This document shows positions 21,933 through 34,397 of a stretch of 34,397 bases of DNA, piece after piece (position 1 is the first letter of the stretch; each line of letters starts with the position of its first letter). The DNA is from a virus (Duplodnaviria; Heunggongvirae; Uroviricota; Caudoviricetes), in IMG/VR virus record IMGVR_UViG_2541047966_000009. One strand, 5' to 3'. The position numbers and the translations under genes are program-made. The notes under the pieces are model-generated. The model was not told the origin of the DNA and did no database searches. It worked only from the letters and a program-made list of their open reading frames with translations.

Positions 21933-22703
21933 ATGAAAATGCAGACATTACCCATCGTTCCATGGATTGGTGGCAAACGCCGCCTTGCAAAACACATCCT
22001 GCCGCTGTTTCCGGCGCATGAATGTTATGTGGAGCCGTTTTGTGGGGCAGCAGCGCTCTATTTTCTTAAGGTACCCGGCAAGATCGAAGTCATTAATGAT
22101 ATCAACGGTGAGCTGGTGAACCTGTATCGGGTGGTAAAACATCATCTGGAAGAATTTGTACGCCAGTTCAAATGGGCGCTGGTCAGCCGGCAGATCTACA
22201 AATGGCTGCAGATCACCCCGGAAGAAACACTGACGGATATCCAGCGTGCAGCACGGTTCTACTACCTTCAGAAGCAGGCGTTTGGGGGCAAGGTGGCGGA
22301 GCACAGCTTTGGTACCTCCACCATATCCCCGCCACGCTTCAACCTGCTGCGTATTGAAGAAGAACTGTCAGCGGCACACCTGCGGCTTTCCAGAACGGTC
22401 ATAGAACACATGGACTGGCAACAGTGCATAGAACGATATGATCGCCCGCATACGTTGTTCTACTGTGACCCTCCATACTGGGGAACGGAAGGTTATGGTG
22501 TGGAGTTCGGACTAGAAAATTATGATCATATGGCAGATTTAGCACGCAGGATCAAAGGGAAGATGATTATATCGGTGAACGATATCCCGGAAATGCGGCA
22601 GGCATTCAACGGTCTAAATATTCAGTCGGTTGATATCAGCTACAACCTCAAGATCACTGGCAAATCCAGTCGCAAGAAGGAACTCATTATCCTCAACTTT
22701 TGA
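21933..22703 (+). CDS. DNA N6-adenine methyltransferase, Dam-like, apparently orphan
   Basis: 256-aa ORF; SAM-binding motif EPFCGAAALYF near N-terminus and catalytic DPPY (FYCDPPYWGTEGYG) near C-terminus; no adjacent restriction endonuclease candidate. Confidence 0.8.
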   Translation: MKMQTLPIVPWIGGKRRLAKHILPLFPAHECYVEPFCGAAALYFLKVPGKIEVINDINGELVNLYRVVKHHLEEFVRQFKWALVSRQIYKWLQITPEETLTDIQRAARFYYLQKQAFGGKVAEHSFGTSTISPPRFNLLRIEEELSAAHLRLSRTVIEHMDWQQCIERYDRPHTLFYCDPPYWGTEGYGVEFGLENYDHMADLARRIKGKMIISVNDIPEMRQAFNGLNIQSVDISYNLKITGKSSRKKELIILNF

Positions 22704-23898
22704 CCGAATAGTAAGACTTCATGCAGTGAATCAAGTACTGCATGAAGTCAAGGGCTGGTTTTGTGTACCAAAAATAAACAGTGATAGCGGTAATAATTCC
22801 CATAACTAGAACACCACGTATAATCCAGAACGTACGTTTCTGCGTGTCTAGTCGCGCAGAAATACTGCTAAATACACCAGCCACGTCATCTTTAATGAAG
22901 GAATATTCCTTATTAATCTGTTTTTCTTTGTATTCAATTTCTTCGCCTAAGGCCTTTATAGATTGCATCTGGTTCGAAAGTGCCAGCCAGATTAACGTTG
23001 CAGCAAAAATGCATCCCAGAAGAATTATTGTGTTTGTTATCCCTTGGCCTGACCATTTCGTAGCCACTTTGAATTGGGTAGCTACGATAACAGAGGCAAC
23101 AGGAATGCCAAGTATATGGTTCTGGATATCTGAAAACGCTTTGTGGATTTTACCCATTTCTTCGACTTTTGCAGCACGCAGTTGATCCATTACTTTGTCA
23201 TAAGAGAATCCAGAAGAGTAGATACGATACCCTTTCAGAAACTTTTCATGCAGACGCTGAATATTGTCCAGTAAATAAGCGAATACTAGAGGTGAATCAA
23301 TTCCATCACTAACTGCTTGAATACTTTCAATCAGAATATCTAGCTTCTGATCCTTATGGGTATCATCATTGAAACAAGCTATAAGGTTATCAAGATACTC
23401 CCTTTGCAAATTTTGTACATTTTCTGCAGCGAAGTGCGGTAATAGCTTGATAACTTCTTTTTTCAGAAAAACTAACTGACAAGTTGAGTTATCAAAGTAG
23501 GCCGCGGCCTCTTTTAGCAGGTTAACGAACTCGAGAATCTTCCGGTAGTTGCTGATGAAAACGGGGATATCTTCATCATCATTACGAAATTTTGTTTCTA
23601 GGATGAAGTAATTAGCTGGCTCAAGGCACTGATGCTTTGGAGCATTTAGCAATTTTTCATGGGTGGAAAACACAAGTCCCAGTCCACTCCGTGGTGACGT
23701 CACACGTAGGATGATCGTGTTACCTGGAGCGATAGTGCCTGTATCAATAGAAAGACCATATTCACGAGGATCATCAAGCAAAGTATCAACCAGATCACAA
23801 TCGGACTGATCTAAGAGCAACAGCGAACCGACACGAAACCCCTCTTGGAATTCCATACGACGATACAGAGCTGTCAGCATCTCAAATGAAATCGCCAC
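22693..23898 (-). CDS. membrane protein of unknown function (large N-terminal soluble domain, two C-terminal TM helices); candidate effector
   Basis: 401-aa ORF, AT-rich; GTG start 2 nt after NdpA-like stop (coupled), internal ATG 18 nt later; hydrophobic ITNTIILLGCIFAATLIWLAL and TFWIIRGVLVMGIITAITVYFWY near C-terminus; no recognisable catalytic motif. Confidence 0.6.
   Translation of the reverse strand: MAISFEMLTALYRRMEFQEGFRVGSLLLLDQSDCDLVDTLLDDPREYGLSIDTGTIAPGNTIILRVTSPRSGLGLVFSTHEKLLNAPKHQCLEPANYFILETKFRNDDEDIPVFISNYRKILEFVNLLKEAAAYFDNSTCQLVFLKKEVIKLLPHFAAENVQNLQREYLDNLIACFNDDTHKDQKLDILIESIQAVSDGIDSPLVFAYLLDNIQRLHEKFLKGYRIYSSGFSYDKVMDQLRAAKVEEMGKIHKAFSDIQNHILGIPVASVIVATQFKVATKWSGQGITNTIILLGCIFAATLIWLALSNQMQSIKALGEEIEYKEKQINKEYSFIKDDVAGVFSSISARLDTQKRTFWIIRGVLVMGIITAITVYFWYTKPALDFMQYLIHCMKSYYSVKS
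22715..22749. other. perfect 13-bp inverted repeat (hairpin) at the convergent dam / membrane-protein gene ends
   Basis: GACTTCATGCAGT-gaatcaagt-ACTGCATGAAGTC, starting ~12 nt after the dam stop and overlapping the last codons of the minus-strand 401-aa gene; no adjacent U-tract. Confidence 0.4.
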
Positions 23899-23900
23899 GA

Positions 23901-24908
23901 TTAAACCTCAGTCATCCACATTTCCCTAAATTCTTCAGGTACATTACGTAGGGTGATAATATTTGTTTCCGGATCATAATCAATATAGCCTTCAGTTTTC
24001 CCTTCCCGGTCAAACTTAAGTTCCCAATATTTAGACTTGCCTTTAAAAGATACCAGAGCCCGAATGACTCGACCATCAGGAACGAAGCCATCCGATAACT
24101 CCAACTCTTCAGCAGCAAGTTTACCAGATAACTCCTCGGGAGCCTGGGGCCAAATGGCATTAACAAGGGTTTCAAGACTAAGTGGTTCACCAGCCTTACT
24201 TAGTGCATGTAAGTGTTCAAACGCATTCTTAAGAAATGCATCTTTTTCAGCGCCGTCAAGTCCTTTCTCTGCCGCAAATGCTTTTAAAACGTCACGTAAC
24301 TTTTCAGACTCTCGTTTGGCGATTAAGACATCATTACAGCCTAGGAACTGTTTAAAATAGTTTGAAACATTACCTTGCCCCTTAAGAAAACTGATATAGC
24401 GCTCTGCGCCACTTTCCCACGCGGTTAAGTCAATGCGCCCAGCCATACGCAGCTTAGCAATATCAAGATAGGTACTATCTTGGATGTTAAAATCATCTGT
24501 GACAGTGGACCCAATGGTAGCGCTTACAATAGCTATCAACAGGTGTTCATTGTGTCCTATCACGATATTTGCAAAAAGAACATAACCACCAGTAGCCATG
24601 TTTTCTCGCTGAGAACGTTCCGTCAGGTGATGCATCATTCGGCAGGAACTTTGGTAGAAATCATCAACACCTTCGAGAAAGTCCCCAGCCATTCGTTCCA
24701 TAGGATAGTTATCCGTATCGCCTTCAAAATAGCCATAACCTTTACCTGTGCGTCCTGCATATTTTGCACAAATATCGTTTATAAGGCGCTGAGAGGCTTC
24801 AGTAACTAGACCTTCTTCAGGACTCAATCTCTCAGAAGCGTCTCCATTTTGTTGTTTGTCTAAAATGTGAACTACAACGTGTTTAACTTCAATGGTCTGC
24901 TCAGACAT
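23901..24908 (-). CDS. divergent NdpA/YejK-family nucleoid-associated protein homologue
   Basis: 335-aa ORF (same length as E. coli YejK); recalled family similarity in ...GGYVLFANIV..., ...STYLDIAKLRMAGRIDLTAWESGAERYISFLKGQGNVSNYFKQFLG... and C-terminal ...YDPETNIITLRNVPEEFRE; SD AAGGTGG 8 nt upstream; AT-rich. Confidence 0.6.
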   Translation of the reverse strand: MSEQTIEVKHVVVHILDKQQNGDASERLSPEEGLVTEASQRLINDICAKYAGRTGKGYGYFEGDTDNYPMERMAGDFLEGVDDFYQSSCRMMHHLTERSQRENMATGGYVLFANIVIGHNEHLLIAIVSATIGSTVTDDFNIQDSTYLDIAKLRMAGRIDLTAWESGAERYISFLKGQGNVSNYFKQFLGCNDVLIAKRESEKLRDVLKAFAAEKGLDGAEKDAFLKNAFEHLHALSKAGEPLSLETLVNAIWPQAPEELSGKLAAEELELSDGFVPDGRVIRALVSFKGKSKYWELKFDREGKTEGYIDYDPETNIITLRNVPEEFREMWMTEV

Positions 24909-24978
24909 TGGCTATCCACCTTATTTTTTATTGCTTAATGGCAAATAATTTCTGCTATATGTTCTCGTTAGGAACACA

Positions 24979-25386
24979 TTAACCCACATTTTTTAACCGC
25001 TCAATCGTTGCGGATAATTCCTTCAGTTGTTTTTCCATCTCAATCACACGCTGTTTTTCTTCAGCGCCTCGCATGAGATCTCGCCGAACCTCAGGATCTA
25101 ACTGGTTTAGAAGTTCAAGCATTTTAAGGTCTGACGGGCTGAATTGATGTTGTGTTGGTACAGCAACAATTTCTTTAGATGGAATATGTTCTTTACCGGT
25201 AAGTAGCCAATCGATCGATACACCCAAATGGGCACTTAGCGCAACAAGAGCCTCTGCGTTTGGTTCTCTCTCTCCACGCAAATAGTTTTGAAGTGAGCGA
25301 TATGGAATTTTTGATAAGTCAGATAATGCCTTTATTGTCATGCCATTAGCATCCATCACTTCACGCAATCTCTCTTTTGTACTCAT
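24979..25386 (-). CDS. prophage repressor, XRE-family HTH
   Basis: Start at ATG MSTKERLREVMDANGMTIKALSDLSKIPYRSLQNYLRGEREPNAEALVALSAHLGVSIDWLL (HTH at N-terminus), coiled-coil C-terminus; divergent from Ner-like gene; ORF-track TTG start at 25482 unlikely. Confidence 0.7.
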   Translation of the reverse strand: MSTKERLREVMDANGMTIKALSDLSKIPYRSLQNYLRGEREPNAEALVALSAHLGVSIDWLLTGKEHIPSKEIVAVPTQHQFSPSDLKMLELLNQLDPEVRRDLMRGAEEKQRVIEMEKQLKELSATIERLKNVG

Positions 25387-25402
25387 TTGAACATATCTCA
25401 AT

Positions 25403-25430
25403 TTGACACACTCATTTGGGTGTGTACAAT
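25403..25430 (+). promoter_or_regulatory. candidate sigma70 early promoter with overlapping operator-like inverted repeat
   Basis: TTGACA-16 nt-TACAAT about 40 nt upstream of the Ner-like start; inverted repeat ACACAC-n8-GTGTGT (~25406-25425) overlaps spacer and -10. Confidence 0.5.
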
Positions 25431-25468
25431 AGACCCAATAGAGTACATCATAACCTAACAGGAACACG

Positions 25469-25699
25469 GTGCATATGAACAAACAACAAGTTCGGGCACG
25501 GCTGGTTGAACGAGGCAGTAGCTTGCGCCAGTTCGCGCTTAACGCGGGCTATGAACCACGAACAGTCACCCAGGCAGTCAGTCGCTGGGCTGGTAAAAGT
25601 GAACTACCTCGCGGTCGTTTGACTTATCGGATTTTGCGAGATCTATCGGTTGCAATAGGTAAAGAAGTTACCCCCGGTATCCTTAAGGAGGCGTCATGA
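25469..25699 (+). CDS. ner: Ner-like DNA-binding regulator (Mu Ner/Nlp family)
   Basis: 76-aa ORF; ...RARLVERGSSLRQFALNAGYEPRTVTQAVSRWAG... resembles Ner-family HTH; first gene of rightward early operon; GTG start with AGGA 6 nt upstream (ATG 2 codons later). Confidence 0.65.
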   Translation: MHMNKQQVRARLVERGSSLRQFALNAGYEPRTVTQAVSRWAGKSELPRGRLTYRILRDLSVAIGKEVTPGILKEAS

Positions 25700-28709: not shown

Positions 28710-29876
28710 ATGCTGGTACTGAAGCAGCAACTGAAAGAGGCCCGTATTCCACAGGCGGTGGTGGCGAGAGCTGTCGATGTTTCTGAGGCCACGCTGGCCC
28801 AGATTGTGAATCATAACGCGTGGCCCCGCACCAGCCCCGGAGAAGTGCGCCGGCGTCTTGCGTCCTGGCTGGAAAGTCAGGGGATTGATACAGCGAAGAG
28901 TTTTGATGCTGTACAGGGCGCGGCCACGCCCCGTACAGCGGGTACCACAGATAAAACGAGCCTCAGTGAGGAAGAGAATATGTTACTCAAAAAACAGGTG
29001 TTATTTCCAGCAACCAAAAAAGCGTTTGGTCTTTTCCGTGACCCGTTCGCCGACGAAGCCATGCAGGGTTCTGATGATGTGTTCACCACACCAGACATTC
29101 GCTACGTGCGTGAGGCGTTGTACCAGACAGCCCGTCATGGTGGGTTTATGGCCGTCATCGGTGAGTCCGGTGCGGGTAAATCCACGCTGCGCCGTGACCT
29201 GACTGAACGTATCAACCGCGAGAATGCGCCGGTAATTGTTATCGAGCCATACATCATTGCCATGGAAGACAACGATGTGAAAGGGAAAACCCTGAAGGCA
29301 GCAGCTATTGCCGAAGCCATTATCAGTACCATCGCGCCACTGGAAAGCATCAGACGCAGTCAGGACGCCCGCTTTCGCCAGTTGCATCGCGTCCTGAAAG
29401 ACAGCAGCCAGGCGGGGTTCAGCCACGTTCTGGTGATTGAGGAGGCCCACAGTCTGCCCATTCCGACACTGAAACACCTCAAACGCTTTTTTGAGCTGGA
29501 GTCCGGTTTCAAAAAACTGCTGTCCATCGTGCTGATTGGCCAGCCGGAACTGGCGACAAAACTGTCTGAACGCAACATGGAAGTCCGCGAAGTCGTTCAG
29601 CGCTGTGAGGTGGTCGAACTTCTGCCTCTGGACAATCACCTTGAAGAATTTCTGACGTTCAAACTGCAACGGGCCGGTAAACAACTGACGGACATTATGG
29701 ACGCCAGCGCAGTGGATGCCATACGTACCCGCCTGAGCAATCCGGGAAGTCATCGTAAAAATATGGTCAGCCTGCTGTATCCGCTGGCCGTCAGTAACCT
29801 GGTAATAGCCGCCATGAATCTGGCCGCTGAAATCGGGGTTCCACAGGTCAACGCTGACGTTGTCAAAGGGGTTTAA
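28710..29876 (+). CDS. DNA transposition AAA+ ATPase, Mu B-like
   Basis: Walker A GESGAGKST and Walker B LVIEEAHS; N-terminal HTH-like region; ATG preceded by GAGGAGGG that overlaps the A stop. Confidence 0.8.
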   Translation: MLVLKQQLKEARIPQAVVARAVDVSEATLAQIVNHNAWPRTSPGEVRRRLASWLESQGIDTAKSFDAVQGAATPRTAGTTDKTSLSEEENMLLKKQVLFPATKKAFGLFRDPFADEAMQGSDDVFTTPDIRYVREALYQTARHGGFMAVIGESGAGKSTLRRDLTERINRENAPVIVIEPYIIAMEDNDVKGKTLKAAAIAEAIISTIAPLESIRRSQDARFRQLHRVLKDSSQAGFSHVLVIEEAHSLPIPTLKHLKRFFELESGFKKLLSIVLIGQPELATKLSERNMEVREVVQRCEVVELLPLDNHLEEFLTFKLQRAGKQLTDIMDASAVDAIRTRLSNPGSHRKNMVSLLYPLAVSNLVIAAMNLAAEIGVPQVNADVVKGV

Positions 29877-29878
29877 TA

Positions 29879-30148
29879 ATGAAATCCACCACAGGTATCA
29901 ACCAGCAAATCAGTAAAGTGCAGTCAGCCATTATGGCGCTTAAGGCGACGAACACGGATGTACAAAGCATCACCATCAGGGGTAACAAACCTGTCATCCG
30001 CGTTTCCAGGAGTGCGCATTGCATGCGCATGCTTGAGCAGGGAAAGGCCTGTTATCTGTATACCGGACATGACCACAGGGGATATTTCCGTCAGGGCGTT
30101 TTCGAACTGCACGGCTGTCGCGTCGTGTGGCCGGAATCTTTGTGGTAA
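29879..30148 (+). CDS. hypothetical small early protein
   Basis: 89-aa ORF starting 3 nt after B stop. Confidence 0.45.
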   Translation: MKSTTGINQQISKVQSAIMALKATNTDVQSITIRGNKPVIRVSRSAHCMRMLEQGKACYLYTGHDHRGYFRQGVFELHGCRVVWPESLW

Positions 30149-30175
30149 TCAGCACAACTGGAGAAATCATAAAAA

Positions 30176-30706
30176 ATGGCAAAAAGTACAAAAGGTGCAA
30201 AACGTATCAAGGCCGCAGCAGCACTCTGGGTGCCGGGGACACGTGAAGAGGTCATTGAGGGCATCAGACTGCTCGGTGACGCACACCGTGAACTGGTCAG
30301 GGCTGAAACAGAAATGAATGACGCCATTGGCGATATCACCGCACGTTATGCCCCGCTCACCGAGAGCCTGAAAAAACGCATGGCCGAACTGCAGTCCGGT
30401 ATTCAGACATGGTGTGAGGCACACCGTGATGAACTGACCGGCAACGGGAAGGTGAAGTTCGCTAACCTCACCACCGGCGAGGTGCAGTGGCGAAACCGTC
30501 CGCCATCAGTCAGTATCCGTGGGGCGGATAATGTTATTGAATTACTGAGACGTCTGGGGCTTGAGCGCTTTATCCGTGTAAAGGAGGAAATAAATAAAGA
30601 CGCTATCCTGAATGAAAAGGACGCCGTGAAAAATATTCCCGGTATTACCATAAAAAGTGATATTGAGGATTTTTCAATAATTCCTTTTGAGCAGGATGTG
30701 CAGTAA
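30176..30706 (+). CDS. gam: host-nuclease inhibitor Gam (Mu Gam family)
   Basis: 176-aa ORF (Mu Gam ~174 aa); basic N-terminus and coiled-coil-like core; position after A/B as in Mu. Confidence 0.7.
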   Translation: MAKSTKGAKRIKAAAALWVPGTREEVIEGIRLLGDAHRELVRAETEMNDAIGDITARYAPLTESLKKRMAELQSGIQTWCEAHRDELTGNGKVKFANLTTGEVQWRNRPPSVSIRGADNVIELLRRLGLERFIRVKEEINKDAILNEKDAVKNIPGITIKSDIEDFSIIPFEQDVQ

Positions 30707-30803
30707 ACACACCACGTTAATTATTTAATAAAAACATTTTCTTTTTTATTCCGGCGTCAGCGCCGTGGGCTTCTGCACGCCGGAAACAGAGGAGAATTAA
30801 ATT

Positions 30804-30998
30804 ATGATATTTAAATGTATTCAGTGCGAGAGGGATATAACAGCCCTGCGTTTTCACAGCGCCATCGCCGTGATGTCCGGTAAGTACCACGTACCTGCAG
30901 TACGTGTCACCCTGGTCTGTCCGTACTGCAGCCAGCATTTTTCGGCGGACGTGCCCGTCATGGAATTCTCCCGCCCTGACAGGGAGGACGCGCAATGA
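30804..30998 (+). CDS. small zinc-ribbon-like protein
   Basis: 64-aa ORF with two CxxC pairs (CIQC ... CPYC); SD GAGGAG upstream. Confidence 0.45.
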   Translation: MIFKCIQCERDITALRFHSAIAVMSGKYHVPAVRVTLVCPYCSQHFSADVPVMEFSRPDREDAQ

Positions 30999-31267
30999 TT
31001 ACCCCACAGGAAGCACGACAGCGCACCCGAACTCTTGTTGAACACTATGTCAACGAGTGTGAATGCCGCGACCTCACCGATGTGAAGCACGTCCTGACGG
31101 CGCTAATCAGCATGGCCACGCAGGCCATTGTGGCAACCAACGGAAAGGAGGCTGCCCTGCAGGTACTGATGAACACACTCACCCACACGGCAGAGCACGA
31201 GGTGCCGTACCGGGTGGAAACCACTGCAGAAGGCGGCCTGAACATCACCGTCGACCGGAAACACTGA
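30995..31267 (+). CDS. hypothetical small early protein
   Basis: 90-aa ORF overlapping previous stop (ATGA). Confidence 0.45.
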   Translation: MITPQEARQRTRTLVEHYVNECECRDLTDVKHVLTALISMATQAIVATNGKEAALQVLMNTLTHTAEHEVPYRVETTAEGGLNITVDRKH

Positions 31268-31276
31268 GGGCGCGGC

Positions 31277-31579
31277 ATGACACGGAACACCGAACTCACC
31301 CGCACCGCCCTCTACCGTCTGGCCCTGCAGCGTTTCGGGCCGGACGCACAGGCCCTGAAACTGACAGAAGAGGCCGCTGAACTGGCGGCCAGTGCCGCCC
31401 GCAACCTGAACGGACAGGGCAGCGAAAGTGACCTCGCGGCAGAGCTGGCAGACGTGGAAATCATGACAGAGCAGCTGCGCCTTCAGGGAATGGACCGGCT
31501 GATTGACTTCCACAAACAGAAAAAACTGGAACGCCTTGCCGCACGGTTGGGCGTCACATACACCGGAGAAATCATATGA
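31277..31579 (+). CDS. MazG-like nucleotide pyrophosphohydrolase domain protein (tentative)
   Basis: 100-aa ORF; paired helix motifs LTEEAAELAASA and DLAAELADVEIMTEQL resemble the EExxE / ELADV signature of small MazG-like proteins. Confidence 0.45.
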   Translation: MTRNTELTRTALYRLALQRFGPDAQALKLTEEAAELAASAARNLNGQGSESDLAAELADVEIMTEQLRLQGMDRLIDFHKQKKLERLAARLGVTYTGEII

Positions 31580-31959
31580 ACCGCACCGAACAGACGCCAC
31601 AACTGACGCCGGAAGATGCTGTACAGCGTATTCGGGTACTGGAAGACGAAAACGAATACCTGCGCAAGAGATTTGAAGAGGTGGACCTGTACTTCGGGCG
31701 CAATCTGGTCGTCATGAAAGCTGCAGTGATTGAGTGGCGGGCCACCGGTGATGCCAGGAACGGCATGGCGTGGATTTACAACACCCTGTGTGGGCCGGGC
31801 GAACTGCCGCCGCAAGAGGAGAAAGAGGCACAGGAATACTTCAACAGGGAAACTGAAGTTATCGACAGAAAACTGGCTGCCCTGTACCACTGGTTCAGGA
31901 AATACCACAGGACACACGCCGCACCTGACCAGACCACCACAGGAGGTACCAGTGACTGA
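31576..31959 (+). CDS. hypothetical early protein
   Basis: 127-aa ORF overlapping previous stop. Confidence 0.45.
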   Translation: MNRTEQTPQLTPEDAVQRIRVLEDENEYLRKRFEEVDLYFGRNLVVMKAAVIEWRATGDARNGMAWIYNTLCGPGELPPQEEKEAQEYFNRETEVIDRKLAALYHWFRKYHRTHAAPDQTTTGGTSD

Positions 31960-32167
31960 CACCATTATGGAAATTGTGGTATGGGCTTTCCTGCTTACTG
32001 GTATAGCCGTGTGCATCTGCGCCGGATTCGCCCTGGTTGCCCTGCTGACCCACGTGGTGACGCAGTGGTTATGGGAAAAGCTTAAAGCAGCATACAGCCT
32101 GAAAGAGCTGTCCGACGCTGTTCGGGCATGGGAACAGCAAAAAAATACCGGAGATACTGAACAATGA
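31952..32167 (+). CDS. small membrane protein (single TM)
   Basis: GTG start 5 nt after AGGAGG; hydrophobic EIVVWAFLLTGIAVCICAGFALVALL; ORF-track start at 31730 overlaps the upstream gene in another frame. Confidence 0.4.
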   Translation: MTDTIMEIVVWAFLLTGIAVCICAGFALVALLTHVVTQWLWEKLKAAYSLKELSDAVRAWEQQKNTGDTEQ

Positions 32168-32847
32168 CAGACCAGGATAAGCACATTGAGAAACTGAAAA
32201 AGTTGCTGGCGCTGGCAGCATCCGGCAACCCGCATGAGGCTGCTCTGGCACTGCGCCGCGCCCGTAAACTGATGGATGTTCACGGCATCACACATTCCGA
32301 CATCGCCATGAGTGATATTGATGAAACCATCAGTCACTACTGGCCGACAGGCAGCCTCCGTCCGCCGCGCTACATGCTGGGCCTGATGAACATCATCCGC
32401 GAGGCATTTGGTGTTAACTCCATCATTCACCCCGGCACATATCCGGGTGTGGGGTTCTACGGCAACCGGGAACGGGCCGCACTGGCCGCGTACACCTGGG
32501 AAGTGCTGGCCCGTCAGCTGAAAAAGGCGCGTCAGCAGTATATCAGTGCACAGAACAAAAGAATAAAAACCGCCACCCGCACCAGCCGTGGAGACCAGTT
32601 TGCTGAAGGCTGGGTGCTGGCCGTTATCAGTGAAATACAGTCCTTCGCCCTGACCGATGACGAACGTGAACTGATGCAGCAGTGGCTGGAACATAAATAC
32701 CCGCAGACGCAAACCACCAGGGCGCGTAAACCGGGAAGAAGTCGCAATGGCGACGCCTCGCGCTATGCGGGGTTTCGAGAAGGGCAGAACGTCAGACTGC
32801 ACCGACCGGTCAGTGGGCGGGAACAGCAGAAACTGGAGGCCAGATGA
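32164..32847 (+). CDS. conserved phage protein with DUF2786-like N-terminal domain
   Basis: 227-aa ORF; N-terminus HIEKLKKLLALAASGNPHEAALALRRARKLMDVHGI matches the pattern recalled for DUF2786. Confidence 0.5.
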   Translation: MTDQDKHIEKLKKLLALAASGNPHEAALALRRARKLMDVHGITHSDIAMSDIDETISHYWPTGSLRPPRYMLGLMNIIREAFGVNSIIHPGTYPGVGFYGNRERAALAAYTWEVLARQLKKARQQYISAQNKRIKTATRTSRGDQFAEGWVLAVISEIQSFALTDDERELMQQWLEHKYPQTQTTRARKPGRSRNGDASRYAGFREGQNVRLHRPVSGREQQKLEAR

Positions 32848-33074
32848 TTACGTTATCAGGTAACAGCCGGAAATTAAAAGCCTGCCGAATATCTGCCAGA
32901 TACCTTTTTGCCCGCGCCTTTTTTAAGAACGTCAGGCCGGGGATCACAATTGGTGTTATTGCCGGACGCGAACAGGTTGAAAAATACATGTCAGGTGCAT
33001 GGTGGAATAAAGACCCTGTCATTGCTGCCCGTAATATTCATATCAGTTGGGGGGATATTCAGAATGACGACTGA
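32844..33074 (+). CDS. hypothetical small protein
   Basis: 76-aa ORF overlapping neighbours. Confidence 0.35.
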   Translation: MITLSGNSRKLKACRISARYLFARAFFKNVRPGITIGVIAGREQVEKYMSGAWWNKDPVIAARNIHISWGDIQNDD

Positions 33075-33279
33075 ATCTGTTGTATGTGCCCTGTTCTGGT
33101 ATTGTTTTGTCGGTTGGTGTACTGCTGAACTGCACCGCCGTTCAGGGTTTTATTCACGTTACAGTGGTGCCGGTTACTGGATTAGCTGGTCGGTGATGTT
33201 CCTGTGCTGGCCTGTGGCACTTCCTTTATATGTCGATTATATCGGTGATGCAGGCAGAAGGAGCAACGATGATGACTAA
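33064..33279 (+). CDS. small membrane protein (two hydrophobic segments)
   Basis: ATG MTTESVVCALFWYCFVGWCTAEL...WISWSVMFLCWPVALPLYV; ORF-track start at 32908 overlaps the upstream gene. Confidence 0.4.
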   Translation: MTTESVVCALFWYCFVGWCTAELHRRSGFYSRYSGAGYWISWSVMFLCWPVALPLYVDYIGDAGRRSNDDD

Positions 33280-33721
33280 ACAACGTCTTATCCAGCTCAT
33301 TCATATTGCCCGTAATGAACTGGGTATGGATGAAGACACCTACCGCCAGATGTTACAGGGGCTGACCGGTAAAGCCTCAACCAAAGGAATGGATACCACA
33401 CAACTAAACTGCGTGCTGGAATCCATGAAAAGGAAAGGCTTTCGCGTTAGGCCTGCAGGAAAAGCCAGCTCCGGTTTACCGCTGGATAACCATCCGCAAT
33501 CCAGGAAAATCCGTGCGCTATGGCTTGAAATGGCTGCTGCCGGCATTGTTCGTGACCGTTCAGAAAATGCATTAGCGCGGTGGATCAAGCGGGAAACGGG
33601 CATCAGCGCCCTGCGCTGGCTCAATACTGAACAGGCAAGCAGTGTTATTGAGAAACTGAAGAAGTGGCAGCGCAGAGCTGCGGGAGTAAAACATGAGCGA
33701 CCTGAATCAGTTTCGAAGTAA
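33269..33721 (+). CDS. GemA / Mu gp16-like regulatory protein
   Basis: Start ATG preceded by AGGAG; ...YRQMLQGLTGKASTKGMDTTQLNCVLESMKRKGF... resembles GemA-family proteins; precedes Mor-like gene as in Mu. Confidence 0.55.
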   Translation: MMTKQRLIQLIHIARNELGMDEDTYRQMLQGLTGKASTKGMDTTQLNCVLESMKRKGFRVRPAGKASSGLPLDNHPQSRKIRALWLEMAAAGIVRDRSENALARWIKRETGISALRWLNTEQASSVIEKLKKWQRRAAGVKHERPESVSK

Positions 33722-34082
33722 AGGGCCGGAACTCCTGGTGGAACTGGCACAGCATACCTCTGAGACCGTTCGCGAGATTATTGATATTGAGCCCGCAATT
33801 GCCGACCAGATTGGTCAGGCCGTCGCGAACCGCATGATGCAGGTCTGGGGCGGGCAAAACGTTTATTTCCCGATGGGCATGGTATGGAAGGTCAGTCAGC
33901 GCGACCGGGAAATCTTCAGGGAGTTTAACGGACGTAATCACCATGAACTGGCCCGCAAATTTGGTGTTTCGCTTCAGTGGGTCTACAGCGTGGTTAAGCG
34001 GGTAAGAAAAGAAGAACTGGATCGGATGCAGGGCAAGCTATTTGCTGATGAACCCGATGTAGATACGGAGAAAAAAGAGTAA
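33693..34082 (+). CDS. mor: Mor/C-family transcriptional activator (middle/late gene activator)
   Basis: 129-aa ORF (Mu Mor is 129 aa); C-terminal ...GGQNVYFPMG...REFNGRNHHELARKFGVSLQWVYSVVKR... resembles the Mor/C HTH region. Confidence 0.7.
   Translation: MSDLNQFRSKGPELLVELAQHTSETVREIIDIEPAIADQIGQAVANRMMQVWGGQNVYFPMGMVWKVSQRDREIFREFNGRNHHELARKFGVSLQWVYSVVKRVRKEELDRMQGKLFADEPDVDTEKKE

Positions 34083-34397
<315 letters not shown>

Follow-up and report, generated by a model that had tools for sequence, protein, structure and literature searches.

The 34,397-nt stretch of DNA held as IMG/VR virus record IMGVR_UViG_2541047966_000009 (the window) is, to judge from its gene order and protein similarities, a BcepMu-like transposable prophage of Escherichia coli. 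The subject of this report is the interval 29879-33279, which lies between its transposition gene B and the regulators GemA and Mor. This interval is very probably the accessory part, of the type known in phage Mu as the semi-essential (SE) early region, of a single early operon. The comparisons described below establish the reality of its genes, their family membership, synteny and variability, a remote relationship of the first gene to Mu Kil, the relationship of a rare cassette to Ea22 and the conservation of a hairpin in the only long intergenic spacer.

Gene layout and probable operon architecture

Ten plus-strand genes, i.e. Gam and nine small genes (g1 and g3 to g10), occupy the interval. 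Gene coordinates were taken from the RefSeq annotation of the identical record NZ_CP082080 and converted to window positions; they agree with a mechanical list of open reading frames (ORFs). Lengths are given in amino acids (aa).

25403-25430, plus strand: promoter-like site TTGACA-16-TACAAT, 11 of 12 consensus positions (consensus scan)
28710-29876, plus strand: transposition protein B (AAA+/ExeA family), left flank (annotation; 50-95% identical in 48 other-species loci)
29879-30148, plus strand: g1, 89 aa (RefSeq)
30176-30706, plus strand: Gam, 176 aa (RefSeq)
30804-30998, plus strand: g3, 64 aa (RefSeq)
30995-31267, plus strand: g4, 90 aa (RefSeq)
31277-31579, plus strand: g5, 100 aa (RefSeq)
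31576-31959, plus strand: g6, 127 aa (RefSeq)
31952-32167, plus strand: g7, 71 aa, GTG start (RefSeq)
32164-32847, plus strand: g8, 227 aa (RefSeq)
32844-33074, plus strand: g9, 76 aa (RefSeq)
33064-33279, plus strand: g10, 71 aa (RefSeq)
33272-33721, plus strand: GemA, right flank (annotation)
33693-34082, plus strand: Mor, last gene of the early operon (annotation)

A dense run of nine or more short overlapping ORFs had been described here from the letters of the sequence (the original prediction), and both the RefSeq annotation and the ORF list bear this out with nine small genes plus Gam. The predicted flanks were also correct, except that the run was placed after Gam, which the interval in fact includes.

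The gap between B and g1 measures 2 nt, and the junctions that follow measure 27, 97, -4, 9, -4, -8, -4, -4, -11 and -8 nt; neighbouring genes overlap by 4-11 nt or stand 2-27 nt apart, with the 97-nt Gam-g3 spacer as the single exception. A ribosome-binding site of the GGAG/GAGG type precedes most starts. All interval genes are co-oriented and overlapping or closely spaced, and terminator-like matches are not above shuffled expectation. The site at 25403-25430, with the divergent repressor gene on one side and the first early gene on the other, is the sole strong promoter-like match. It is presumed to be the early promoter that drives the whole early operon, the interval included, and the interval genes would be co-transcribed from it with A and B.

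All ten proteins match a PHROG family (E = 5e-16 to 1e-76). The ratios of non-synonymous to synonymous substitution rates (dN/dS), calculated against E. coli variants and cross-genus relatives wherever substitutions suffice, range from 0.05 to 0.43. The family matches together with this purifying selection indicate that the ten ORFs are real genes and not chance. The region is nevertheless GC-rich, with many overlapping ORFs on both strands, and the depositors of the Escherichia phage PhiKM annotated a minus-strand ORF over g3, so that several of the short ORFs could be suspected of being no genes at all, the true product being an antisense ORF (31483-32802) or a non-coding RNA. This suspicion is scarcely credible in view of the ten plus-strand ORFs with PHROG families, ribosome-binding sites and dN/dS below 0.45. 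Moreover, the 439-aa antisense ORF is cut in close relatives from 454 codons to 340 or 259, and in distant ones that keep g8 it has at most 142, and the cysteine motif of g3 is invariant across genera.

Identity and distribution of the prophage

The gene order of the window is that of BcepMu read in reverse (repressor, early genes, A, B, small genes, GemA, Mor), and the identity to BcepMu amounts to 68% for A, 59% for B (gp08), 45% for GemA (gp02) and 54% for Mor (gp01). The interval is matched with 100% identity on the chromosome of E. coli MS20655 (NZ_CP082080) and is 96% identical to PhiKM, which GenBank classes under Bcepmuvirus. Of 5,426 complete E. coli genomes, 640 contain a counterpart; its 712 occurrences have many different chromosomal neighbours, and such near-random insertion is the pattern expected of a transposable phage. 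At the right end of the prophage, homology to other copies breaks at 34244/34245. The MS20655 copy (L002 10367-13271) adjoins torS, a frameshifted pseudogene according to RefSeq; the neighbours of other copies include ycaL, a corA fragment, sitD, purT, gyrA and fhuF, consistent with near-random transposition.

Comparison with the early regions of Mu and BcepMu

In Mu, the SE region comprises 14 ORFs on a long early transcript, and its deletion removes killing (PMC3325207). The interval resembles this region (Mup05-Mup15) in its slot between B and GemA/Mor, in its strand and in its dense packing. Mu's region likewise opens with a Kil-type gene after B and holds Gam and small uncharacterised proteins, including cysteine-rich ones. 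On the other hand, only Gam and, remotely, Kil are homologous among the interval genes, GemA and Mor being also common to both early regions, and the profiles of g3, g5, g8 and g10 found no match in Mu. Gam is sixth in Mu's region and second in this prophage, and Mu's region contains no MazG-like, DUF2786/DUF7168 or Ea22-like gene. Unlike in Mu, Mor is the last gene of the prophage, and neither a C gene nor any late genes follow it; further differences from Mu are a transposase that, like that of BcepMu, is of the rve/Tn552 type, and an ExeA-like B.

BcepMu has the same genome plan and, among named phages, the closest relatives of A and B. Its B-GemA interval, however, holds five genes (gp07, a pyrophosphatase, DUF3164, HU and gp03) compared with ten here. 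It includes a small post-B protein remotely related to g1, as well as the pyrophosphatase gene, and lacks Gam, the zinc ribbon, DUF2786/DUF7168 and an Ea22-like gene, so that only the g1/gp07 relation is shared with the interval. In PhiKM and approximately 640 E. coli prophages, the gene order is the same and the nucleotide identity is 96% over most of the interval, but in PhiKM and most E. coli copies g6 is missing, and the alleles of g7 and g10 are 70% and 42% identical, respectively, to those of the window. By this comparison, the interval appears to be a region of the same kind as the Mu SE region, filled almost wholly with different genes, which agrees with its earlier description as a non-structural accessory segment of a transposable-phage early operon flanked by A/B and GemA/Mor.

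Variability of the interval among related prophages

The cross-species sample consisted of 48 loci from other species anchored on B, and a presence/absence matrix was compiled over 51 loci. Across the cross-species loci, A, B, GemA and Mor are missing only rarely, and the genes between them are patchy. The most widespread are g1 (26 loci with a match), g8 (24), the g3 family (22), g10 (18), g5 (16) and Gam (15); g4 and g9 each have a match in 3 loci, g7 in E. coli only and g6 in none. The B-to-GemA distance varies from about 0.7 to 4.3 kb in seemingly intact loci and is shorter in deleted copies. In many loci, as in BcepMu, DUF3164 takes the position of Gam. The comparison across relatives that the original prediction had proposed thus finds variable content, and not a set of ORFs that is invariant and has defined transposition roles. 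Not all of the genes are accessory to the same degree: two hot spots vary within E. coli, while g1, g3 and g8 are widely conserved across genera.

In a Buttiauxella relative, the synonymous divergence (dS) is about 0.43 for A and B, compared with at least 1.3 or saturation for g1, g3, g5 and g8. This contrast implies that the history of the inner genes differs from that of their flanks and indicates module exchange. The longest B-to-GemA interval (4.3 kb) belongs to Eikenella glucosivorans (L046, 8137-12443), in which a g8 homologue, DUF3164, an HU-like protein and an open frame of about 385 codons (from a raw six-frame translation, and possibly spurious) illustrate how much the cargo of the slot differs in distant relatives.

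The shortest distances need a different explanation. In the Photorhabdus loci L025-L032, B and GemA are 720-786 bp apart and a remnant of the Gam C-terminus (…DFSIIxFEQKIK*) stands directly before the zinc-ribbon gene, approximately 100 nt upstream. These loci are deletion derivatives and not minimal functional arrays. The survival of g3 in them had been considered as a sign that g3 is a core gene, an argument that fails because these intervals hold Gam pseudogene remnants and the prophages are decayed.

The recurrence of g1, g3 and g8 across genera, the constant position of g1 directly after B, the 95-97% identity of most of the region within E. coli and the aid that Gam gives to the survival of Mu DNA could also mean that the interval genes are conserved auxiliary factors of transposition or replication, functionally core and accessory-looking only through their small size. 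This is very unlikely. Prophages with 80-95% identical A and B lack most interval genes or carry others, BcepMu shares none of them but the remote g1 homologue, natural E. coli variants exist without g6, g7 or g9 or with a 42%-identical g10, and the equivalent region of Mu can be deleted (PMC3325207).

The proximal pair: a Kil-like protein and Gam

The g1 protein is basic (isoelectric point, pI, 9.9), matches phrog_2041 (E = 3e-36) and is named 'HI_1482 family' by PGAP in newer records; it has no Pfam match. An AlphaFold2 (AF2) model reaches a pLDDT of 92.1. In 26 loci, g1 lies directly 3' of B, and Mu kil and BcepMu gp07 occupy the equivalent post-B position. A g1 profile aligns with Mu Kil over 64 columns with an hhalign probability of 72.5% (E = 3.3e-5), and with BcepMu gp07 with a probability of 63%. 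A library-wide search with the g1 profile gave 199 representatives of 80-125 aa, three of which are matched directly by Mu Kil (best E = 1.6e-7). When a hidden Markov model (HMM) of the g1 family, built from 142 representatives, was run against 2,344 six-frame ORFs, it retrieved only g1 homologues, Mu Kil (3e-5) and gp07 (1e-4). On the basis of these profile results and the common position, g1, HI1482, BcepMu gp07 and Mu Kil appear to form one remote family. Expression of Mu kil kills cells (PMC3325207) and, according to a passage in PMC3961180 that cites Waggoner 1989, yields spherical cells. By analogy, g1 is expected to be toxic to the host or to alter its morphology.

The assignment of Gam is, at the level of sequence, certain: the protein matches PF07352 with 139.5 bits against a cut-off of 28.3 (E = 1e-40, profile positions 1-148 of 149) and phrog_491 with E = 9e-73, and it is 62% identical to Mu Gam over 169 aa. 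As a Ku-like protein, it would bind double-stranded DNA ends and inhibit host nucleases.

A conserved hairpin between Gam and g3

The only long spacer of the interval contains a structured element.

30734-30796, plus strand: structured intercistronic element; an extended hairpin (stem-loop 30749-30785, core 30752-30782) preceded by a U-rich tract

The 97-nt spacer folds with -30.7 kcal/mol (z = -3.9 compared with shuffles), and in the lower stem of the window hairpin the U-tract pairs with the Shine-Dalgarno sequence of g3. A shorter local hairpin, CGGCG-UCAR-YGCCG, is an alternative fold. In 637 E. coli genomes, each prophage has the core, CGGCGTCAGCGCCGTGGGCTTCTGCACGCCG (30752-30782), exactly once, and the rest of the genome lacks it. 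The element recurs with differing neighbours in at least 12 genome loci and at least 75 viral contigs. Its upstream neighbour is always Gam or DUF3164; downstream, a g3-family gene follows in 84 of 100 instances and other genes otherwise. With a covariance model, diverged hairpins were located in loci of the Serratia, Brenneria and Pectobacterium type, where they follow DUF3164; some of these loci have no g3. Conservation of the hairpin far exceeds that of the neighbouring g3 coding sequence, the protein of which is only 56-58% identical.

Pairing is maintained in 95% of the stem cells in 44 distinct sequences, compared with 34-53% when the partners are slid, a figure to be read with the relatedness of the sequences and with a part of the stem being fixed by the search pattern. 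Two outer pairs covary (U:A/A:U and U:A/C:G), and the one-sided stem changes, read directly, are all C-to-U and give G·U on the plus strand. There is no family match for the hairpin in Rfam, and the element was not found in BcepMu.

Three other identities were rejected. A REP/BIME-type host repeat does not fit an element that occurs once per prophage and nowhere else; an intrinsic terminator is excluded by the lack of a U-run after the hairpin on either strand; and strict coupling to g3 is contradicted by the diverged copies that precede g5 or another gene in g3-less loci. We read the hairpin as a putative RNA-level element at the border between the conserved proximal and the variable distal early genes, most likely acting on the transcript via stability, processing or translation of the next gene. 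That the U-tract and hairpin together constitute a previously undescribed cis-acting RNA switch of BcepMu-like phages, which sets the expression of the distal accessory genes, is an unlikely extension of this reading. Such a switch might be operated by a phage protein encoded nearby, either the g3 zinc ribbon or the basic, KH-like g8; the action of Mu Com on mom mRNA offers an analogy for g3 acting on the hairpin.

The distal genes g3, g4 and g5

The g3 product is, by sequence, a four-cysteine zinc-ribbon protein, as the original prediction had proposed. Its motif CxxC…CPxC, formed by C5, C8, C39 and C42, does not vary among 18 distinct homologues, which come from Escherichia, Photorhabdus, Xenorhabdus, Brenneria and others. 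The protein matches phrog_3401 (E = 2e-40), and its Pfam matches are generic zinc-finger ones below threshold. Two more specific identities were rejected. Homology to Mu gp6 was considered because KCxxC…CPxCS is common to both by eye, but the g3 HMM scores neither gp6 nor gp13. A Com-type translational activator was considered as well; there is no Com-family Pfam match and no mom-like gene in the interval, so that the comparison with Com is a general analogy only, that of a small zinc protein beside a structured RNA. The PhiKM record (PQ738613, L001 4839-5060, corresponding approximately to window 30717-30938) annotates a minus-strand hypothetical ORF over g3; RefSeq, the cross-genus conservation and the invariant cysteine motif favour the plus-strand gene.

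The g4 protein matches phrog_3691 (E = 1e-54) and has no Pfam or PDB match. Its dN/dS is 0.21-0.43, and its tblastn matches are restricted to L001-L003 and L013, that is, to the E. coli lineage and one other genus.

The metal-binding acidic motifs EExxE…ExxD define the MazG/all-alpha nucleoside triphosphate (NTP) pyrophosphohydrolase superfamily. In g5, this motif (E31, E32, E35, E56, D59) is invariant or at least 90% conserved in 10 homologues. The best annotation match of g5 is to phrog_2245, 'nucleoside triphosphate pyrophosphohydrolase' (E = 5.7e-34), with weaker matches to phrog_4856 and phrog_1992, and newer RefSeq records also name it nucleoside triphosphate pyrophosphohydrolase. Within the g5 family, a match to PRA-PH is found in 8 of the 10 members (best E = 0.001) and one to MazG PF03819 in 4 (best 0.018), all below threshold, and no similarity was detected between g5 and the BcepMu pyrophosphatase gp06. 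The protein is a plausible candidate for a MazG-like all-alpha NTP pyrophosphohydrolase; the MazG-like label given to it earlier is supported by phrog_2245 and the acidic motifs, and it falls short of the curated Pfam cut-offs. One MazG-like enzyme of phage origin, Atd1, is a (p)ppGpp hydrolase that alleviates the toxicity of TIR-STING (bioRxiv 10.1101/2022.06.09.495361). Atd1, from Pectobacterium phage PcCB7V, resembles g5 in its length of about 100 aa, its EExxE and ExxD motifs and its place among phage early or accessory genes. It differs in that g5 lies below the MazG and PRA-PH thresholds of Pfam, and the two are compared by analogy.

Cassette exchange at two hot spots

The first hot spot lies between g5 and g8; it holds g6 and g7 in 6 genomes and only a 70%-identical g7 allele in most, and is empty in others. 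Its limits are marked by a direct repeat.

31562-31569, plus strand: direct repeat ACCGGAGA, 8 nt, copy 1, in the ribosome-binding region of g6
32147-32154, plus strand: direct repeat ACCGGAGA, 8 nt, copy 2, in the ribosome-binding region of g8

The two copies bracket a 585-bp g6 and g7 cassette, which is exactly what one E. coli class lacks, the interval measuring 3401 bp in the one class and 2816 bp in the other. Prophages of the '83% class' (e.g. PEC403, L053) join g5 to g8 exactly via ACCGGAGA, which changes the C-terminus of g5 to …YTGDTEQ.

The rare cassette gene g6 is, by sequence, a homologue of the C-terminal part of the ead/Ea22-like proteins of Stx phages. It is 51-64% identical to such proteins (E down to 5e-36, tblastn against 97 lambdoid/Stx phage records) and aligns, along the C-terminal 100 or so residues, to residues ~141-239 of the 257-aa protein L0069 of 933W (exo-xis region) and to positions 292-415 of the 416 of phrog_18739. 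Of the 640 complete E. coli genomes with the prophage, only 6 contain g6; its slot is constant, and the prophages that carry it are inserted at many chromosomal sites. The likeness to ead/Ea22 of 933W includes a short coiled-coil stretch, and both appear to be early-expressed accessory genes. The 933W protein, however, has a long N-terminal and coiled-coil part that the stand-alone g6 (127 aa) lacks, and Ea22-like genes lie in the exo-xis regions of lambdoid phages, in contrast to the Mu-like early region that holds g6. Ea22 is prolysogenic (PMC7093339, PMC10834534). A PDB sequence search gave no match for g6, which fits the report that the C-terminal domain of lambda Ea22 differs from that of the Stx-phage homologues (PMC10834534).

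A different identity for g6 was suggested by PADLOC, in which the model PDLC02890 matches it end to end (E = 2e-91) and would make it a defence gene carried on a prophage, namely that for DpdH in the Dpd (7-deazaguanine) restriction system. This is almost certainly incorrect. The model has only 127 positions, is nearly identical to g6 and looks mis-clustered; DpdH of Dpd islands has an ATPase domain of DNA-replication type (PMC11888242), of which the 127-aa g6 shows no sign; no other dpd gene is present in the window or beside eight other g6 copies; and the real relatives of g6 are the Ea22-like proteins of lambdoid exo-xis regions. The DpdH match was rejected as a label artefact, and the apparently wrong name of PDLC02890 in PADLOC-DB could produce false Dpd calls.

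The g7 protein (phrog_3958, E = 5e-38) has one long hydrophobic segment (residues ~6-38) with a Kyte-Doolittle 19-residue maximum of 2.63, and is a strong candidate for a small membrane protein. It is missing in one E. coli class and is represented by a 70%-identical allele in most, and appears to be dispensable.

In the second hot spot, which follows g8, either g9 and g10, or g9 and the 42%-identical g10 allele (the majority, including ST131), or proteins of 135 and 67 aa are encoded. The g9 protein is basic (pI 10.1), matches phrog_3681 (E = 2e-53) and has no Pfam or PDB match; in some E. coli prophages it is swapped for the 135-aa protein, which is of coiled-coil type. The g10 protein, of which most E. 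coli prophages carry the 42%-identical allele, matches phrog_6436 (E = 5.5e-16), is rich in aromatic residues and cysteine and is a probable two-segment small membrane protein. Its hydropathy maximum is 1.51, so that the small membrane proteins of the original prediction are well supported in g7 and less so in g10.

The g8 gene separates the two hot spots and is present in 24 loci, including Pasteurellaceae and Eikenella. Its protein is basic (pI 10.1), with a disordered, Arg/Lys-rich C-terminal tail. Residues 8-44, an N-terminal helical hairpin, match PF10979 (DUF2786; 43 bits compared with a cut-off of 23.9, E = 4.4e-11) and residues 46-189 match PF23771 (DUF7168; 91.3 compared with 25.5 bits, E = 5.5e-26); all 59 database relatives carry DUF2786 and/or DUF7168, most of them both. 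The AF2 model (pLDDT 80.8) predicts a core that resembles a KH-like alpha/beta domain. A literature search on DUF2786, DUF7168 and HI1482 found no functional information.

Across the interval, NCBIfam gave no match among the ten proteins, PADLOC gave none for g1, g4, g5, g8 and g9, and PDB sequence searches (g3, g4, g5, g6, g8, g9) and profile searches (g1 and g5 families) returned chance-level matches only. This outcome bears on another view of the interval, namely that it is chiefly an anti-defence island, the small proteins of which neutralise RecBCD, abortive-infection signalling and restriction. Gam blocks host exonucleases, the MazG-like phage enzyme Atd1 removes (p)ppGpp and thereby counters TIR-STING toxicity, the region shows the variability and fast evolution often seen in counter-defence loci, and cassettes turn over at the hot spots. 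Besides Gam, however, no characterised anti-defence family was matched in Pfam, PHROGs, NCBIfam, PADLOC or PDB, which in itself is weak evidence; g5 shows no detectable relation to the BcepMu pyrophosphatase; dN/dS is well below 1 in every gene, with no sign of diversifying selection; and the relatives of g1 and g6 are tied to host killing and the lysogeny decision, not to immunity. An island chiefly devoted to anti-defence is therefore unlikely. With respect to the host-takeover and anti-defence functions suggested in the original prediction, Gam and the takeover relatives of g1 point to the former, whereas anti-defence, beyond the generic analogies of Gam and MazG, matched no known protein and has no direct support.

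A model of the early operon

The reading of the interval as an accessory, SE-type segment can be put as a sequence of events, in which we infer every biochemical activity and phenotype of the interval genes. On loss of the repressor, transcription from the early promoter at ~25.4 kb would proceed through the Ner-like gene, DUF3102, A and B and then, with no recognisable terminator on its way, through the ten translationally coupled small genes to GemA and Mor. In the conserved proximal pair, g1 may be toxic or shape-altering by analogy with Kil, and Gam would shield the linear ends of the phage DNA from exonucleases. The structured RNA after Gam would mark the border to the mosaic distal set g3-g10, in which g5 could clean or reshape nucleotide or alarmone pools (cf. 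Atd1) and relatives of g6 bias lambdoid phages towards lysogeny. Turnover of the region presumably occurs by recombination, with whole modules swapped between phage lineages and, within E. coli, small cassettes gained or lost at the two hot spots, of which the first lies between the copies of the 8-nt repeat.

Several observations weigh against this model. The single-operon claim derives from geometry and consensus scans. Several of the cross-species loci are decayed prophages, and some of the 'absences' reflect decay and not design. The Kil link is remote (21.5 bits), the hhalign probability falls to 24.5% when a smaller g1 alignment is compared with Mu Kil, and the mechanism even of Mu Kil itself is poorly known. 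For g5, the PRA-PH (PF01503) score of 15.0 bits is under the Pfam gathering score of 21.3, and PDB sequence and profile searches returned no MazG structure. Finally, g3, g4, g9 and g10 offer no functional lead.

Other features of the window

A block of low GC content (0.40-0.47) beside the repressor, at 21933-25482, is cargo.

21933-22703, plus strand: DNA methyltransferase-like gene, type II/orphan (PADLOC MTase_II, E = 4e-115)
22693-23898, minus strand: 401-aa protein with no Pfam match and a weak KwaA-like match (E = 8e-5)
23901-24908, minus strand: homologue of the 37-kDa nucleoid-associated protein (PF04245, E = 6e-81)

In IAI39, other genes are found at this position. The block could be a prophage-borne module of defence or lysogenic conversion.

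Implications

The interval adds to the known Mu-type kind of early region a Kil homology, an Ea22-like cassette, a repeat at a hot-spot junction and a conserved hairpin; of these, the Kil relationship, the hairpin in the Gam-g3 spacer and the Ea22-like nature of g6, together with its rarity, had been missed in the original prediction. The concept of the Mu SE region is thereby extended to the BcepMu lineage, and current understanding is not overturned. The Ea22-like cassette would represent a crossing from lambdoid into Mu-like phages.

The genes of the interval are candidates for host-takeover and counter-defence screens; as a MazG-like enzyme, g5 may be assayed on NTPs and (p)ppGpp, and g1, as a Kil homologue, may be tested for toxicity. 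The prophage family is present in about 12% of complete E. coli genomes, including those of ST131 and other extraintestinal pathogens, so that few uncharacterised phage genes in clinical E. coli are as widespread as its early accessory genes.

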